A stretch of 64,000 nucleotides of DNA from an uncultured Actinomycetes bacterium (lineage in GTDB: Bacteria > Actinomycetota > Thermoleophilia > UBA2241). The position numbers and the translations under genes are program-made. Below the pieces are notes generated by a model. That model had not been told where the DNA came from. It worked only from the letters and a program-made list of their open reading frames with translations, and searched no databases. Positions 22,374-55,305 of the stretch are shown in pieces. The DNA lies in the NCBI GenBank assembly GCA_963767005.1, contig CAVYCN010000012.1, forward strand, positions 32,001-96,000, in the 5' to 3' direction. Each line of letters begins with the position of its first letter. Position 1 is the stretch's first letter.

Positions 22374-22526
22374 AGCGCTCACACGCTCCTGTCGCACTTG
22401 CAGGGTGGGGCGCGGCCCGGAGCATGCAAGGTGGCGCTCCATCACGAACGCCTGCCCGAGCGGCCTGGCCGCCGCCACCGTCGTCGGCGACCAAGCCGAC
22501 GCATCGGCCCGTGGGCCGACCGCGCG

Positions 22527-22611
22527 ACGCTACGCCGAACGGCGTTAAGAGTCCATAAAATCACGCGCCGTCAGTATAAAGAACCTGTTAAGGTGTGAAG
22601 TATCCGTAAAG
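22527..22611 (-). promoter_or_regulatory. Four-box promoter A (P-type ATPase/trkA operon) plus an extra box pair
   Basis: Boxes at 22543/22554/22575/22586; -10 TAGCGT at 22527-22532; extra pair at 22594/22605. Confidence 0.7.
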
Positions 22612-22627: not shown

Positions 22628-23791
22628 CTACTCGGTCTCGCGCACCGTCTTGCTGGGATCGGCCACCACGAGCACGTCGACATCCTGGGTCTCGCGCATG
22701 ATCCGCGCAATCAGCGACGAGCCGCGCAGTACCTCGTCCATGCGCGAGCGTTTGGACTGACCCATGACGACGAACGTCGCGCGGTGCTCGTGCGCGAAGT
22801 GCAAGATGGCCTCGTCTTCGGAGTCACCGGACAGCTCCACTACCTCGCCGCCCAGGTTGCGCGTGAGGTCGAAGAGCTCGGTGAGCTCGTCGTGATGACG
22901 CCCGAGGGTCTCCCCCGGCGTGTGCACGTGGATGACCCAGAAATGTCCCTGGAGGCGCTTGGCCAGGCGGTAGCCGCGCCGCACGAGCTTCTTCGCCACC
23001 GGCCCCGCCTTGATGCACACCACGACGCGGTCCTCGGTGGCCCAGGGAGTCTCGATCTCGTGCTCCTCGATGTAGTGCTCGAGGCTCTCGTCGACCTCCT
23101 CAGCCGTCTTGCGCAGGGCGAGCTCGCGCAGGGCCACCAGATTGCCGCGGCGGAAGAAGTTGCTGAGCGCCCCGGGGATCTTCTCGAGATCGTAGACGAC
23201 GCCCCGGTTCAGCCGGTTGATGAGGGCGTCGGCCGTGAGGTCGACCAGCACCACCTCGTCGGCGCGGTCGAGGATGCCGTCGGGTAGCGTCTCGCGCACG
23301 CGCACCGAGGTGATCTGGTAGATCGTGTCGTTCAGGCTCTCGAAGTGCTGGACGTTGACGGTCGAGAGCACGTCGATGCCGGCCGCCAGGATCTCCTCGA
23401 CGCTCTGCCAGCGCTTCTCGTGCTTGGTGCCGGGGATGTTCGTGTGAGCGAGCTCGTCGACCAGCACGACCGCCGGCCGGCGGGCGATCACGGCCGCCGT
23501 GTCCATCTCTTCGAACATGCGGCCGCGATACTCGAGCGTCTTGCGCGGGACGATCGACAGGCCCTCGGCGAGCTCGGCGATCGCCTTGCGGCCGTGCGTC
23601 TCGACGAAGCCGATCACGACGTCCTCGCCGCGCTCGGCACGCCGGCGCGCCTCGGAGAGCATGGTGAAGGTCTTGCCGACGCCCGGCGCGTAGCCCAGGA
23701 AGATCTTGTGGCGTCCCCGGTTGCGCAGGGTGCGCAGCGCTATTTGCTCACCGGGTCCGGTGCCGCCGGGAGGCGGGTCGGCGGCGGCCAT
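22628..23791 (-). CDS. kdpD: Stand-alone N-terminal half of KdpD (KdpD domain plus USP domain)
   Basis: GYAPGVGKT, ETHGR, VDELAHTN, KRWQ, NVQHFESLND, LRELALR; no TM or kinase domain. Confidence 0.9.
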   Translation of the reverse strand: MAAADPPPGGTGPGEQIALRTLRNRGRHKIFLGYAPGVGKTFTMLSEARRRAERGEDVVIGFVETHGRKAIAELAEGLSIVPRKTLEYRGRMFEEMDTAAVIARRPAVVLVDELAHTNIPGTKHEKRWQSVEEILAAGIDVLSTVNVQHFESLNDTIYQITSVRVRETLPDGILDRADEVVLVDLTADALINRLNRGVVYDLEKIPGALSNFFRRGNLVALRELALRKTAEEVDESLEHYIEEHEIETPWATEDRVVVCIKAGPVAKKLVRRGYRLAKRLQGHFWVIHVHTPGETLGRHHDELTELFDLTRNLGGEVVELSGDSEDEAILHFAHEHRATFVVMGQSKRSRMDEVLRGSSLIARIMRETQDVDVLVVADPSKTVRETE

Positions 23792-29137: not shown

Positions 29138-29203
29138 CTTTCGGCACTCTTTATGACGCCGCCGAGGTGCTTCACGCGTCCTTAAGCACGTCCGGGGGAT
29201 GGT
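29138..29203 (+). promoter_or_regulatory. Four-box promoter D
   Basis: Boxes at 29138/29149/29170/29181; weak -10 GATGGT at 29198-29203. Confidence 0.65.
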
Positions 29204-29769: not shown

Positions 29770-29805
29770 TCGAGGCCGCCGGACCGCGAGGTCCGGCGGC
29801 CTCGA
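29770..29805. terminator. Hairpin between convergent genes
   Basis: 16-bp perfect stem, GCGA loop. Confidence 0.65.
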
Positions 29806-29811
29806 CCCGTG

Positions 29812-30555
29812 TCAGACGAGCTCGCCGCCGGCGTCGCCCTGAGCGTTCGGCGCGGGCTCGGGGACCGAGAGCCGAAAGCCGACCCCCGGTTCGGTGATGA
29901 TGTAGCGCGGACCCGCCGGCGAGGGCTCGATCTTCTTGCGCAGATGGCTCACGTGCACGCGCAGCGTCTGCGCGTCTTCGACCCACTCCGGACCCCAGAC
30001 GTGCTCGAGGATCATCTTCTGCGTGACCACGAGGTCGGCGTTGCGGGCCAGGAACGCGAGGATGTCGAACTCGGTGGGGGTGAGGGCGACCTCGGCGCCG
30101 GCCAGCGTGACGCGGCGGCGCGCGATGTCGATCGACAGGTCGCCGGCCACGACGACCGGCGGCGGCGAGGTGAGCGCCGCCGCGCGCCGCAGCAGCGCGC
30201 GGATGCGGGCCAGCAGCTCGCCGGCCGAGAACGGCTTGGTCAGGTAGTCGTCGGCGCCCTCGTCGAGCGCCTTGATCTTGTCGGCCTCGGCGGAGCGCAC
30301 CGACAGGATGAGGATCGGGGCCGTCATCCAGGTGCGCAGCTCGCGACAGACCTCGATGCCGGTGCGGTCGGGCAGCATGAGGTCGAGCACGACGAGATCG
30401 GGGGGGTCGTCGATCGCCTTGATCAGCGCCTCTTCGGCGGTGGAGGCCAGTGAGAGCTGATAGCCGCGAGAGCCGAGGATCGACTGCAGAGCGCGACGGA
30501 TCTGCTCTTCGTCGTCGACGGCGAGAATGCGTGTCGGCCGCTCGGGAATGCTCAT
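29812..30555 (-). CDS. kdpE: OmpR-family response regulator KdpE
   Basis: VDDEEQIRR, LDLMLPD, GADDYLTKPF, LRVHVSHLRKKIE, YIITEPGVGFR; kdp context. Confidence 0.9.
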   Translation of the reverse strand: MSIPERPTRILAVDDEEQIRRALQSILGSRGYQLSLASTAEEALIKAIDDPPDLVVLDLMLPDRTGIEVCRELRTWMTAPILILSVRSAEADKIKALDEGADDYLTKPFSAGELLARIRALLRRAAALTSPPPVVVAGDLSIDIARRRVTLAGAEVALTPTEFDILAFLARNADLVVTQKMILEHVWGPEWVEDAQTLRVHVSHLRKKIEPSPAGPRYIITEPGVGFRLSVPEPAPNAQGDAGGELV

Positions 30556-36958: not shown

Positions 36959-38536
36959 CTAGGACTCGCTGCGCGGAGCGGTCTCGGCGGCCTCGTCGGG
37001 CAGGCCGATCACGAAGCGGGCGCCATGCGGCACGACGTCCTCGACGTGGATGCCGCCGCCGTGGGCGCGCACGATCTCGCGGGTGATCGCCAGGCCGAGA
37101 CCCGTGCCAGAGCGCACCTTCATGCCGGTCCTGCCGCCGCGGTAGAACTTCTCGAACACGGCCTCGTGCTCGTCGGCGGCTATGCCGGGGCCCTCGTCTT
37201 CGACCCAGAGCCGCACGCCGCGGCCGGCGGCCTCGGCGCCGACGCGCAGGAGGCCGTTGCCGGCGTACAGCATGGCGTTCTCGAGCAGGTTCTGAAACAC
37301 CCGCACGAACTGTTCAAAGTCGACGCGCAGCGGTGGGAAGTCGTCGGGCACGGCGACGATCACCCGGTCCCGCTCATGGACCGGCAGGGCGGCGAGGCCG
37401 GCGGCGAGGATATCGGAGATTTCGTAGAGCTCGAGGTGCGGCTCCCAGGCGCGCGCCTCGAGACGCGAGAGATCGAGCAGCGCCGTGATGCTGTTGTTGA
37501 GACGGGCCACGTCGGAGACGATGGCGCGCAGCTCGTCGCGCACGCTCCGCTCGTTCCAGGGCACGTCGCCTTCGAGCAGGTTGCTGACCGTCGCCGTGAG
37601 GGCGGCGAGCGGCGTCTTCAGCTCGTGTGACACCGATGAGAGCAGGCTCGACTTGAGGCGATCGGCCTCGCGCAGCGCCTCGGCCGCCGTCGCCACCGTC
37701 TGCAGGCGCTGGCGCTCGAGGAAGGTCGCGATCAGGTTGGCGAGCGCGGCGAGCAGGCGGCCGTCGGCGTCATCGTAGGGTCGGCCGTTCCGCCGGCCGG
37801 CGACGCTCAGGACCCCGACGACTCCGAGCGCGCCGCGCAGGGGAAGAAAGATCCCGCCGCTGCCCTCGGGCACCTTGAAGCCCTCGACCGGCGGCCCGGC
37901 GCCGGCGGTCTCGGCGAGCGTCTGTCGCGGCAGGCCGACCGGCTCGCCGTGCATGTACACCCAGTGCGCCACCCTCGTCGCTCCGCTGTCGGGCTCGTCC
38001 GACGCCGGCGTCACGCAGAACCTGGTGAGCTCGTCGTCGCTGCCGACGAAGAGCGTCGCCGACGCGGCGCCGAGCAGCGTCACTATCTCGCCGAGGATCG
38101 TCTCGGCCATCTCGCCCGTCGAAGCCTGTGAGACAAGACCCGCGGAGAGCCGGTTGAGCGCGGCCGTCTCGTGCTCGCGAGCCAGGGCGCGCGCCTCGCG
38201 GTCTCTCATGCGTCCGGTCTGCACGCCCATGACGACGCCCACCGCCAGGAAGGCAACGAGGGACAGCCAGTCCTTGGGGTCCTGGACCGTGAGCGTGTGG
38301 TACGGCGGCAGGAAGAAGAAGTCCCAGGCGAAGAAGCCCAGCACGGCGGCCAGCACGGCGGGTCCGGCGCCGCTCGCCCCCGCGACGAGCACGACGATGA
38401 GCAGGTAGAGCAGCGCCCACTGCCCCTTGGCGAAGGTGTCGCGGCCCGGCAGGAACAGGGCAGTCGACAGCCCGATCGCCAGGAGGGCGAGCCAGTAGCC
38501 GTGGGCGGCGAGTGTCGTGAGCGTGCGTCGCAGCAT
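36959..38536 (-). CDS. kdpD: C-terminal half of KdpD: four-TM (DUF4118-like), GAF and histidine kinase domains
   Basis: DFFFLPPYHTL, SSVSHELKTPL, NLLENA, DEGPGI, GTGLGLAI; lacks the KdpD and USP domains. Confidence 0.88.
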   Translation of the reverse strand: MLRRTLTTLAAHGYWLALLAIGLSTALFLPGRDTFAKGQWALLYLLIVVLVAGASGAGPAVLAAVLGFFAWDFFFLPPYHTLTVQDPKDWLSLVAFLAVGVVMGVQTGRMRDREARALAREHETAALNRLSAGLVSQASTGEMAETILGEIVTLLGAASATLFVGSDDELTRFCVTPASDEPDSGATRVAHWVYMHGEPVGLPRQTLAETAGAGPPVEGFKVPEGSGGIFLPLRGALGVVGVLSVAGRRNGRPYDDADGRLLAALANLIATFLERQRLQTVATAAEALREADRLKSSLLSSVSHELKTPLAALTATVSNLLEGDVPWNERSVRDELRAIVSDVARLNNSITALLDLSRLEARAWEPHLELYEISDILAAGLAALPVHERDRVIVAVPDDFPPLRVDFEQFVRVFQNLLENAMLYAGNGLLRVGAEAAGRGVRLWVEDEGPGIAADEHEAVFEKFYRGGRTGMKVRSGTGLGLAITREIVRAHGGGIHVEDVVPHGARFVIGLPDEAAETAPRSES

Positions 38537-52061: not shown

Positions 52062-53147
52062 CTACAGGGTCCTCGTGACCTTGTGCAGCCCGCGCGGCCT
52101 GTCGGGGTCGTAGCCGCGCGCCTCGGCCAGACGCGCGGCCAGCAGCTGACCCGGCACGATCGCGGCAAGCGGCGACAGCGGCTCCGGAGGCGTCTGCGGC
52201 AGGTGCAGGCAGCGCCTTCTGGCGCTCTCGCCCTTGGCGCGCTCGCTCACGGCGCGCTCGTTTGCCGCTGCGCCCGCCGCACCGTGTGCGCCCTCGACGA
52301 CGACGATCTCCGCGCCGCGCTGCAGCAGGTCGCCCTCGAGGCGGTGCATGGCCGGGAGCGCCCGACCGGGGAGCGAGAACAGCAGGGCCGGATAGCCCGG
52401 CTCGACCATCGCGATGGGGCCGTGCATGAGATCGGCCGCCGAGTAGGGCATGGCCGCGATGTACGAGGTCTCCTTGAGCTTGAGCGCGGTCTCGAGCGCC
52501 GTCGCGAAGTTGTAGCCGCGCGCGGCGACCAGCAGTCGCTCGCTGAAACGCAGCCATTGCGCGATCTCGCCGATCGCGGCGTCGAGCGACAGCGCGGCCC
52601 GCATCGCGGCGGGCACCGCGTCGCGCAGCGCGGCGAGCAGCGCCGCGTCGTCGCACCACGTCGCCCAGAACAGGGCGAGCGCCGCGAGCTGGCTCGTGTA
52701 GGTCTTGGTCGCGGCCACGGCGCGCTCGCGTCCGGCGCGGGTCGGCAGCACGGCGTGGGCGTGCCGCGCGAGCAGGCTGTCGTCGTCGTTGGTGATGGCC
52801 ACCGTGAAGGCGCCCGCGACGCGCGCGTGCGCGACGTACTCGGCGACGTCGGGCGTCTCGCCGCTCTGGCTGATGCCGACGACGAGGCACTCGCGCAGAT
52901 CAGCGGGCCTGTCGTACACGGTGGCCGAGCTCGGGACCGCGAGGCCGGCGGGCACGCCGGCGTGGATCGTCGCCAGGTACTTGCCGTACACGGCCGCGTT
53001 GTCGCTCGTGCCGCGGGCCGCGTAGAGCACGAAGCGGGCGCCGGCGGCGCGCGCGCCGGCGACGGCCGCGCGATAGGGAGCGAGGTCGGCCGCGAGGCGA
53101 GCGACGATGTCGGGCTGCTCGAAGATCTCGTCGCGCATCAAGCTCAC
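52062..53147 (-). CDS. Double-SIS-domain sugar-phosphate isomerase/deaminase (GlmS isomerase/FrlB/AgaS-like)
   Basis: EIFEQP, ARGTSDNA, ISQSGETPD, AVAATKTY, ALKLKE, HGP, PRGLHKVT. Confidence 0.88.
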   Translation of the reverse strand: MSLMRDEIFEQPDIVARLAADLAPYRAAVAGARAAGARFVLYAARGTSDNAAVYGKYLATIHAGVPAGLAVPSSATVYDRPADLRECLVVGISQSGETPDVAEYVAHARVAGAFTVAITNDDDSLLARHAHAVLPTRAGRERAVAATKTYTSQLAALALFWATWCDDAALLAALRDAVPAAMRAALSLDAAIGEIAQWLRFSERLLVAARGYNFATALETALKLKETSYIAAMPYSAADLMHGPIAMVEPGYPALLFSLPGRALPAMHRLEGDLLQRGAEIVVVEGAHGAAGAAANERAVSERAKGESARRRCLHLPQTPPEPLSPLAAIVPGQLLAARLAEARGYDPDRPRGLHKVTRTL

Positions 53148-53200
53148 GGCTCTCTCGTCTCCTGTCTCGCCCGCCGTGGCCGGCGGCATCGCGCCCGACC

Positions 53201-53222
53201 AGCCTAGTATACCGATTATACT
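53201..53222 (-). promoter_or_regulatory. -10 TAGGCT plus the shared operator upstream of the SIS gene
   Basis: ATACCGATTATACT at 53209-53222, identical to 50146-50159. Confidence 0.6.
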
Positions 53223-53288: not shown

Positions 53289-53354
53289 CTTTATAGGGTC
53301 TTGACGGCGACGGCGCCCCCGTTCACGGGTCCTTACGCCCGGCGCTGCCATCAT
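53289..53354 (+). promoter_or_regulatory. Four-box promoter H, outside the kdp island
   Basis: CTTTATA 53289, CTTGACG 53300, GTTCACG 53321, (C)CTTACG 53331-53337; -10 CATCAT at 53349-53354. Confidence 0.65.
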
Positions 53355-53360
53355 CGCAAC

Positions 53361-53515
53361 GACGCCCCGCCGTCTCTCTGTCCCCGGCGGGGCGCCGGCT
53401 CGCAAGGGCACGGGCGACCCGCTCGCCGGCGCCGTCGCGACGCTCGGACTTCGGCCCTCCCCCGTGGGGCCGGACAACAAGGCCGCCGGGCCGCAAGGCC
53501 CGGCGGCCTTGTTTT
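53361..53515 (+). ncRNA. Putative small regulatory RNA (~155 nt)
   Basis: Four-box promoter upstream, 5' hairpin at the predicted start, C/U-rich loops, no ATG-initiated ORF, own terminator. Confidence 0.55.
53476..53515 (+). terminator. Intrinsic terminator of the putative sRNA
   Basis: 17-bp stem, GCAA loop, ends TTGTTTT on the + strand. Confidence 0.75.
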
Positions 53516-53539
53516 GCGTGAGGTCGACGGAGACGACGC

Positions 53540-53583
53540 GACGGGCCCGGCGGGGCGGCTTTGGCCGCCCCGCCGGGCCCGTC
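53540..53583 (-). terminator. Hairpin after binding-protein copy 2
   Basis: 20-bp perfect stem, about 25 nt past the stop codon. Confidence 0.65.
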
Positions 53584-53607: not shown

Positions 53608-55305
53608 CTACTTGGTGATCCAGTAATGCTCGAAGTCGAAGATCCACACCGGGTGCAGGTAGACGCCGCCGGTGCGCCTGGAGTGCAGTGTGGTCACGGT
53701 CTCCTGGTACAGGGGCACGCCCGGCATCTGCTGCATGATGTAGGACTGGATGTCCTGGAACTTCGCCAGGCGCGCCGCCGGGTCGGTCATGACCTGAGCG
53801 CTGGTCATGTCGGTCTCGACCTTCGGATCCCACCAGAAGCTGGGGTTCGTGCCCTCGTCGATCGCCGAGCTCCTGCTGAACAGGCTGACGATGTAGTCGA
53901 ACGGATCGGGGTAGTCCATCCACCAGTCGTTCAGGCCGAGACCGACTGCGCCCTTCTTGCCGATCAGTGTCCAGTACGCCGGCTCGTCGAGCAGCTTGAT
54001 GTTCGCCTTGATGCCCACCTGGGCGAGGTCGTACTGGATGGACTGGATCACGGTGGGCCACGGCGCGACGTTGTGCGAGTACAGGGTCGTGCTGAAGCCG
54101 TTGGGGAAGCCGGCCTGACTCAGGAGCTGCTTGGCCTTGGCCGGGTCGTAGCCGTAAAAGTTGCCGGCGGCGCCGTCGACGTGGCCGGGCAGACCGGCGG
54201 GGTAGATCTGGTTGAGCGGCAGGGCCGTGCCCGAAAGCAGCTTGACGATCTTGGCGCGATCGATGGTCCAGGCGATCGCCTGACGCACCAGCAGGTTATC
54301 GAACGGCTTGACCGTCATGTTGAAGAACAGGTAGTCGAGCGCGATCGCCGGCTCCTGGACCACCTGGCTCTTCCACTGCGGGCTCGCGACCAGGCCCGGG
54401 TACTTCGACGGCGGGATATAGTTGCCGAGCAGGTCGGCGTCGCCGTCCTGCACCTTGAGCACGGCCGTGTCCGGCGTGATCGAGAAGTCGAACTGGATCT
54501 TGTCGACGTACCCCGCGGTGCCCGTGTAGTTCGTATTGCGCACAAGCAGCAGGTCCTGGCTCGCGGTCCAGTGGTCGCACACGTAGGGGCCCGTGCCGAG
54601 GGGGTGCCGGCCGACCTGCTTGCCCCACTTGGCGACCCACTCCCTGGCCACGGGCGCGCTGAAGGGCATCTCCATGATGTTGAGGAACGTGGCGATCGGC
54701 TTCTCGAGGTCGACCTCGAGGGTGTACGTGCCGGTCGCCTTGTAGCCGGTGATCGTCTTGGCCTTGCCGTCGAGGAACGCCTGCAGGCCGACGATGCCGG
54801 TGTAGTAGCCCTTCGCCGGGGCGGTCGGCAGGCTCATCATGCGCTGGAAGCTGTAGACGAAGTCGGCCGCCGTGACCTCGCGGTTCACCGGCGGGGCGAA
54901 CTTGATGCCCGGCCTGATGTGGAAGATGTAGGTCTTGCCGCCGTTTGTGATGCCGCCGTTGGCCACGGTCGGGACCTCCGTCGCCATGTCGGCGATGACC
55001 TTCGTGCCGGCGGCGCCTGGGCCGCTCGTGTAGTTCAGCAGGTTGCCGAAGATGGCGTGCTCGATGGCCCAGCCGTTGCCCTCGAAATCGATCGCCGGAT
55101 CGAGCGTCTGTGGCTCGTTCTGGAACGCGACGACGAGCGTGCCGCCGCGCTGCGGCGTGGTCGCCGACGTCGCGCTCGCGCCGCCGCCGCCGCCCGACGA
55201 GCTGCCGCAGGCGACCAGTCCGAGAGCACACACGACCAGCACGACGAGCAGGCCACCGACGACGCCGGCGGCAGGCCGGCGCGCGTCCCTGAGGAAGGCA
55301 GTCAT
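53608..55305 (-). CDS. Family 5 ABC substrate-binding lipoprotein, copy 2 (close paralog of copy 1)
   Basis: LVAC lipobox; collinear with copy 1 to the C-terminal EHYWITK; AAAGGAG RBS. Confidence 0.9.
   Translation of the reverse strand: MTAFLRDARRPAAGVVGGLLVVLVVCALGLVACGSSSGGGGGASATSATTPQRGGTLVVAFQNEPQTLDPAIDFEGNGWAIEHAIFGNLLNYTSGPGAAGTKVIADMATEVPTVANGGITNGGKTYIFHIRPGIKFAPPVNREVTAADFVYSFQRMMSLPTAPAKGYYTGIVGLQAFLDGKAKTITGYKATGTYTLEVDLEKPIATFLNIMEMPFSAPVAREWVAKWGKQVGRHPLGTGPYVCDHWTASQDLLLVRNTNYTGTAGYVDKIQFDFSITPDTAVLKVQDGDADLLGNYIPPSKYPGLVASPQWKSQVVQEPAIALDYLFFNMTVKPFDNLLVRQAIAWTIDRAKIVKLLSGTALPLNQIYPAGLPGHVDGAAGNFYGYDPAKAKQLLSQAGFPNGFSTTLYSHNVAPWPTVIQSIQYDLAQVGIKANIKLLDEPAYWTLIGKKGAVGLGLNDWWMDYPDPFDYIVSLFSRSSAIDEGTNPSFWWDPKVETDMTSAQVMTDPAARLAKFQDIQSYIMQQMPGVPLYQETVTTLHSRRTGGVYLHPVWIFDFEHYWITK

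Follow-up and report, generated by a model that had tools for sequence, protein, structure and literature searches.

A candidate KdpE-activated small RNA in an intergenic gap near a potassium-transport island of a Thermoleophilia genome

The locus

The window analysed here is a stretch of 64,000 nucleotides (G000:C12:32001-96000; positions given without a contig are counted within it) of a Thermoleophilia genome, G000, of 3.44 Mb and 71% GC. It contains a potassium island that includes two operons for kdp pumps, a split kdpD, the gene of a KdpE-like regulator, that of a cation ATPase and a pair of trkA genes. About 15 kb from the island, a gap between a divergent SIS-domain gene and a convergent gene for a family-5 solute-binding protein (SBP) carries the unit described below. 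An earlier note had proposed a potassium-regulated small RNA (sRNA) here, and both the distance of ~15 kb and all of the features that it named were found in place. The unit is framed by the following genes and elements.

29812..30555, minus strand: KdpE-like response regulator, the presumed activator; KdpE is the best NCBIfam model, with 231.6 bits against a cut-off of 325
52062..53147, minus strand: SIS-domain (NagB-II/GlmS-like) gene, divergent neighbour
~53205-53220, minus strand: TATAAT/TATACT hexamers on the SIS promoter side
53540..53583, minus strand: 3' hairpin of the convergent SBP gene, with a long hairpin near the SBP stop also in relatives without the unit
53608..55305, minus strand: family-5 SBP gene, convergent neighbour, tail to tail with the unit in all three genomes that carry it

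The two parts of the split KdpD, a sensor/Usp gene (22628-23791) and a separate membrane-GAF-kinase gene (36959-38536), lie ~13 kb apart. The SIS gene is inverted in G000 and in its relative G011 with respect to the other genus members examined, and between 48992 and 55305 both genomes combine this inversion with a duplication of the SBP gene. The SIS-SBP junction of relatives holds varied inserts of 0.1-8 kb. A GTATAC-containing motif lies 5' of the SIS gene (53200-53220) and is likely the operator of a nearby regulator, presumably of GntR/UTRA type; a related motif recurs in every genus member examined.

All seven genus genomes examined that are without the RNA unit have a long hairpin near the SBP stop, and the hairpin at 53540-53583 is therefore the SBP gene's own. 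The earlier note had held that the convergent gene does not need the terminator of the unit; the separate, ancestral SBP hairpin supports this, but the terminator is bidirectional and the SBP hairpin has no U-tract on the minus strand. A riboswitch or attenuator leader is not supported: no co-directional gene follows the terminator, the next gene being convergent in all three carriers, and no Rfam cis-element was found in the window.

The four-box promoter

Upstream of the unit stand four direct-repeat boxes and a putative -10 hexamer.

53289..53338, plus strand: four direct-repeat boxes, predicted KdpE operator; spacing 7-4-7-14-7-4-7, then 10 to the -10
53289-95, plus strand: box 1, CTTTATA, containing TTTATA, the E. 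coli S1 half-site
53300-06, plus strand: box 2, CTTGACG
53321-27, plus strand: box 3, GTTCACG
53331-37, plus strand: box 4, CCTTACG; in-register form CTTACGC at 53332-38
53349..53354, plus strand: predicted -10, CATCAT, 10 nt 3' of box 4

Boxes 2 and 3 are as previously given, and box 4 is a weaker fit to the repeat pattern, being shifted by one base. With a matrix made from six kdp-island promoters picked by eye, the candidate being left out of training, the box array scores 24.2 bits and ranks 9 of 6,870,328 genome positions. Above it are seven kdp-island sites (six of them the training set) and C12:11482, and the next best site below scores 16.6, which bears out the earlier statement that the kdp-type architecture recurs at this position. 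The seven island sites, at 22592, 28634, 29096, 29138, 30682, 31915 and 36868, serve the two kdp operons, a cation ATPase-trkA-trkA unit, an HNH-repeat gene and three small ORFs that have no NCBIfam match. The site outside the window (G000:C12:11482-12144, -10 CACCCT) precedes ORFs of 64 and 135 aa; ORFs of the 64-aa type stand behind four-box sites of G011, G009 and G001 too, and the locus appears to be an unannotated member of the KdpE regulon.

The matrix finds the same site in G011 (22.3) and G009 (23.8), where the promoter stretch has no indel over 66 nt. Between G000 and G011 the boxes are identical at 23/28 positions and the spacers at 12/32 (Fisher p 5e-4); the excess is stronger between G011 and G009 (p 4e-5) and weaker between G000 and G009 (p 0.09). 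Boxes that are kept while their spacers drift require selection on the promoter. The -10 hexamer, which reads CATGAT in G011 and CACCAT in G009, occupies the same register as the TAGCCT-type hexamers of the island promoters; in G008 a 30-aa ORF is driven from an identical hexamer, and CA-type hexamers drive clear ORFs elsewhere. A generic sigma-70 scan finds no promoter at the unit, as would be expected of an activator-dependent one.

In E. coli the KdpE half-sites are TTTATA-N5-TTTACA with an 11-bp period (PMC3264566); the motifs of M. smegmatis (PMC5401905) and Caulobacter (10.1101/2023.07.05.547876) are reported as different. The assignment of the site to KdpE thus rests on the E. coli match and the link to kdp genes. 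That of the regulator as KdpE-like rests on its best model and also on its position inside the kdpFABC/split-kdpD island. Taken on these grounds, a KdpE-type promoter very likely stands in front of the unit.

The predicted transcript

The promoter points into the following elements.

53361..53515, plus strand: predicted non-coding transcript of ~155 nt, with the start placed at 53361-62
53363..53394, plus strand: P1, a 10-bp stem with the 12-nt loop UCUCUCUGUCCC (53373-84)
53400..53440, plus strand: P2, a bulged middle hairpin predicted in G000 and G011
53450..53474, plus strand: P3, a GGCCC stem with a C-rich loop, the only body element common to the three copies
53476..53515, plus strand: bidirectional terminator hairpin with a GCAA loop, the hairpin itself at 53476-53513

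The offset used for the start is borrowed from two four-box sites in G015, where ATGs lie 7 nt after the -10. The perfect 10-bp stem reported close to this start is present, and among 310 perfect stems of at least 10 bp with a 10-14-nt loop it is the sole case of an almost pure pyrimidine/purine loop. The hairpin at 53450-74, which was said to carry 'CCCUCCCCC', is likewise present, but its CCCU is paired in the stem and the exposed loop is CCCCCGU (CCCC in G011 and G009). The terminator tails read UUGUUUU on the plus strand and UUGUUGU on the minus strand; in G011 the plus-strand tail is poor in U, and G009 has no U-tail on that strand but U4 on the minus strand. The terminator is of a type common in the family, where U-poor tails are usual.

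The gap had been described as holding no ATG-initiated ORF, and this stands: no ATG occurs in 53356-53520, a GTG at 53464 has no stop ahead of the terminator, and the genome codon model gives negative scores to each of the six frames. A minus-strand reading frame from the CAT/CAC triplet of the -10 was discarded, since it gives unrelated peptides in the three copies.

The whole unit folds with a z of -6.5, mostly owing to the terminator; without the terminator z is -1.8, and 11/200 shuffles fold as well. For the bodies of G000 and G011 the gain in stability over shuffles is only mild (z about -1.7 to -1.8), and a z of about -2.3 for G000 falls between the 5th and the 25th percentile of 170 random intergenic windows. 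Over the three copies, the plus-strand folds contain eight G-U pairs against two A-C mismatches that would pair on the minus strand, which favours the plus strand. All three folds also show a stem that joins the 5' end to bases 3' of the terminator and so closes the unit; it was set aside as not significant (0.14, 0.14 and 0.32 of random windows), and part of it falls 5' of the predicted start.

No Rfam family reaches its gathering score in the window; the region has only far-below-threshold matches, mostly to generic hairpins, and the homologous loci of G011 and G009 have none, in keeping with the earlier view that this is no described family. Nor is the unit a dispersed repeat or MITE, as it is single-copy in the genome. 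A predicted promoter and terminator of its own and no ORF place the unit, at the level of sequence, in the sRNA class, and it is probably a functional non-coding RNA.

Homologues and conservation

BLAST over 60 relatives returns one true match, in G011, which covers 53363-53508 at 79% identity in the same gene context. Identity of this order means little by itself because the neighbouring intergenic regions of the two genomes are 74-95% identical. The other matches are short GC-rich or terminator-like pieces, and the one inspected (L007) is unrelated. The pattern of change relative to G011 tells more, in the boxes (see above) and in P1. There the loop is invariant, and in a 13-pair helix three pairs have double changes, one has turned into U-G and two are broken in one sequence. 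Over the whole comparison there are six double changes in 49 pairs, three in P1 and three in the terminator, a count matched by 6/500 shuffles, although two related sequences can beat this control without any structure and the three in the terminator would covary anyway.

A third copy, in G009, was found by reading the SIS loci across the genus. Its boxes are in register, and its body of ~140 nt, again tail to tail with an SBP gene, has three hairpins and a terminator; without the terminator it folds with z -5.2 on the plus strand and -2.2 on the minus strand. G009 shares with the other two copies only the promoter, the position, the four-hairpin layout, the C-loop hairpin and the terminator. 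P1 with its UCUCUCUGUCCC loop is lost and a different hairpin stands in its place. Similarity of the body sequence is not significant (47/500 and 170/500 shuffles score as high), and 6/1126 pre-hairpin windows of G000 match the G009 P3 to the same degree as the P3 of G000 itself. Across the three copies the terminator has double changes in 5/14 pairs and P3 has none; P2, whose pairs are invariant and show no covariation, is weakly supported for that reason. The search for homologues and covariation that the earlier note had suggested thus finds compensatory changes in P1 and the terminator, but none in P2 or P3.

The unit is carried by 3/12 genus genomes (G000, G011 and G009), which form one side of a tree branch of weak support (77/74). 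No four-box site occurs at the SIS position in the fetched DNA of eight other genus genomes with an SIS orthologue, and no SIS orthologue was found in the 61%-complete assembly of G002. RNA models matched strongly in 2/89 and 3/89 family genomes, and the promoter pattern in 3/401 class genomes. Nothing further came from the RNA models in 89 family genomes or from the promoter pattern in 89 family and 401 class genomes, and the promoter-plus-P3 pattern gave no more copies in all species genomes and 0 in viral contigs; the queries were built from two or three known copies, so that diverged ones would escape, and many assemblies are incomplete. One metagenome match (L024) lies inside a coding frame and has no boxes or hairpins, and 27 weaker loci fetched with a P3-terminator model are ordinary terminators with no upstream boxes (best matrix score <=1.6 vs 22-24).

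Four-box sites across the family

A general four-box pattern matched 60/89 family genomes (138 sites), the reversed control giving 3 matches. The DNA downstream of 122 of these sites was read by an automatic call of Shine-Dalgarno (SD) sequence plus ORF, with 22 doubtful cases judged by eye; seven sites of the genome itself, seven left unfetched as likely chance and two missed by the filter were omitted. In 120/122 cases the site appears to run into an ORF, the exceptions being the G011 orthologue of the present unit, which is the only one of the 122 that ends in a short non-coding terminated unit, and L201 (G013:C3:540984), a four-box-like site in a setting of CTTAAC-type repeats, where strong hairpins occur and the downstream DNA shows no evident ORF. 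Small membrane peptides, the cation ATPase and kdpF leaders account for many of the ORFs.

Recurring families of membrane peptides of 26-95 aa (MTDIGI-, VELIAV-, MLIAGIAYV- and VEHLVVN-types; L104-L201) lie behind these promoters, and would amount to a broad small-protein arm of the potassium regulon across the family. A 29-aa membrane-peptide gene stands back to back with the G009 unit (L048:2713-2802, minus strand); its product resembles 30-31-aa peptides of G002, G005, G008 and G092, with no clear copy in G000, and the start of the gene and the RNA 5' end have a 10-base same-sense stretch in common. In the island, a cation-ATPase leader of ~150 nt (22374-22530, minus strand) is strongly conserved in G000, G007 and G010 and contains an ATG with arginine-rich codons after it; it may be a leader peptide or an RNA element.

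Search for targets

Pairing of the two loops was predicted against 3003 G000 start regions from our own gene calls, and selected sites were compared in G011. No conserved mRNA target was found in this set. The target prediction proposed earlier did yield one outlier, a TetR gene (C13:22223, -19.2 kcal/mol, 11-nt match), but G011 does not have its site; a site at a ROK gene is conversely present in G011 and not in G000. The site at the HNH-repeat gene weakens from -16.0 in G000 to -9.2 in G011, and that at the SIS gene scores -13.8 in G000 and -11.3 in G011, but also -12.9 in G008 and -11.7 in G009, both of which are without the loop. No consistent pairing site was seen in 13 potassium-island/regulon and neighbour genes, and none of the potassium-transport genes stands out.

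The suggestion that both loops are SD-pairing seeds is not supported here, as the G009 copy is without loop 1 and the top site of that loop is not conserved in G011. Nor is the CCCUCC anti-SD of the second loop conserved: both relatives have G in place of the U that pairing with the A of GGAGG would require, and this U is stem-paired here. An unpaired UCCC-type motif is found in loop 1 of G000 and G011 and is absent in G009; in P3 its U is paired and not conserved. The genome encodes neither Hfq nor CsrA.

Proposed function and competing explanations

We infer that KdpE binds the site, that the unit is transcribed and that its transcription depends on potassium. Under potassium shortage, phosphorylated KdpE would bind the four-box operator and switch on an sRNA of ~155 nt, whose exposed C-rich loops would pair with G-rich ribosome-binding regions of several mRNAs and so repress them. 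The seed common to all copies would be the P3 loop with its CCCC, and only G000 and G011 would have a further seed, in the P1 loop. This pairing, in trans and without Hfq in the manner of the 6C RNA, is the least certain part of the explanation. By analogy, multi-target translational repression after KdpE-dependent induction would be the most likely action. As a whole, the proposal of a lineage-restricted, KdpE-activated, base-pairing sRNA is in our judgement evenly balanced between right and wrong. Against it, only 3/12 genus genomes carry the unit although 9/11 relatives keep a KdpE orthologue that is 90-98% identical.

This patchy distribution would suit an orphaned regulon unit, in which a genuine KdpE promoter and a terminator of the ordinary kind remain after loss of a small membrane-protein gene and the transcript has no job. 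Nearly all four-box promoters of the family drive ORFs, many of them membrane peptides of 27-95 aa, and the regulon is labile, as G011 lacks the unit at 29138 with its 140-aa ORF. The peptide gene back to back with the G009 unit, and a kdp-island terminator (29771-29804) that is the closest paralogue of the unit's own, point the same way. We nevertheless consider such a relic unlikely. Selection on the promoter is needed to keep the boxes while the spacers drift, and the compensatory changes of P1 flank an invariant loop. Remains of a peptide gene were also sought with three families (o79, 30-aa and VELIAV-type), which gave negative bit scores or no match; the best shuffle ranks were 17 and 20 of 500 among 9 tests, and the peptide-level test was not significant.

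A KdpE-induced RNA might alternatively act through the shapes of its hairpins on a protein or another RNA, rather than by pairing with ribosome-binding sites. The retention in G009 of the layout (three hairpins and a terminator in 140-155 nt) without the sequence, the exposure of only four C by P3 in two copies and the failure to find a conserved mRNA target are in line with a decoy of this kind. It is quite improbable, however, in a genome without CsrA or Hfq and for an RNA in which no repeated protein-binding motif is seen, and a 12-nt loop that is unpaired, invariant and SD-complementary suits base-pairing.

An effect in cis only, either antisense or collision against the SBP gene or a KdpE site for the divergent SIS gene, would account for the tail-to-tail arrangement with the SBP gene in three carriers, for the plus-strand U-tail that is weak in G011 and absent in G009, and for boxes ~70 nt from the SIS promoter hexamers in G000. 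Yet the unit does not overlap the SBP gene, two hairpins lying between it and the SBP stop, U-poor tails are usual for terminators of the family, and in G009 the unit sits at the 3' end of the SIS gene and so cannot control its promoter; conservation of P1 and P3 would also be left unexplained, and the whole is similarly improbable. A small peptide gene with an unusual start is still far less probable: one frame resembles high-GC coding for a short stretch and has an ATG in G011, but G000 has no ATG, that frame has no stop ahead of the terminator, no SD precedes the G011 ATG, the frames differ between copies and codon scores are negative in all of them.

The known role of KdpD/KdpE is to activate the genes of potassium pumps; a KdpE-driven sRNA, if real, would give it a route to repression and add to potassium homeostasis a post-transcriptional layer not found in the literature searched. 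A wider and rather doubtful possibility is that KdpE regulons repeatedly recruit sRNAs as a repressive arm, as independent inventions, here through a CCCC-loop hairpin and without Hfq, the young sRNA having gained a new seed loop on an older scaffold of promoter, hairpin and terminator. An activator-only potassium sensor could, were this so, shut down mRNAs. The reach of the sRNA proposal is limited for now by a range of three species and by a target search that gave no conserved site.

Comparison with known systems

The predicted site resembles the E. coli kdpFABC operator in direct repeats with an 11-bp period and in the TTTATA inside box 1 (PMC3264566), and also in role, since the same box type precedes the kdp operons of G000. 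In contrast, it has four boxes (11/21/11) rather than one pair, and it would drive a non-coding unit and not a pump. In the literature searched, which takes in few subscription journals, no report of a KdpE-activated sRNA was found, and by title or abstract no sRNA of Thermoleophilia, for which the unit would be the first candidate in that literature. Related sources are a P. aeruginosa DAP-seq study (PMC8599809) and a Caulobacter study with many KdpE peaks (10.1101/2023.07.05.547876), the targets of both of which may include sRNAs. In the latter a small RNA falls under potassium limitation, with no link to KdpE in the part consulted.

Among sRNAs with C-rich single strands, S. aureus RsaE is described as pairing with SD regions (PMC2965222). 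The unpaired pyrimidine-rich loop of G000 and G011, which ends in UCCC, is similar in this respect to what is described for RsaE. The unit differs in having no Rfam match, in belonging to another phylum, in a motif that is not duplicated and is absent from G009, and in its distribution, RsaE being deeply conserved. Apart from the point on deep conservation, the likeness and the differences also apply to S. aureus RNAIII, another sRNA with C-rich loops.

The M. tuberculosis 6C RNA represses many mRNAs by pairing of C-rich loops with G-rich leaders and without chaperones (PMC6486639). Like the unit, it combines a high-GC actinobacterial host, stem-loops with exposed C-rich loops and a genome without Hfq (RF01066). 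Its six conserved cytosines compare with four or five C in the P3 loop and three in a row in the P1 loop; the P1 loop alternates U and C, the promoter is of KdpE type, and the unit is confined to one genus whereas the 6C RNA spans high-GC Gram-positive genera. RF01066 has no match in the region or the homologous loci, and no 6C RNA was found in the genome. The unit is not a member of the 6C family, and at best may act like the 6C RNA.

OmrA/B and MgrR are examples of sRNAs under two-component regulators. Transcription of sRNAs under such regulators constitutes a general class (PMC9262595). The unit would fit this class in having an OmpR/PhoB-family operator before a stand-alone non-coding gene, and would differ from the examples in its regulator, which would be KdpE.
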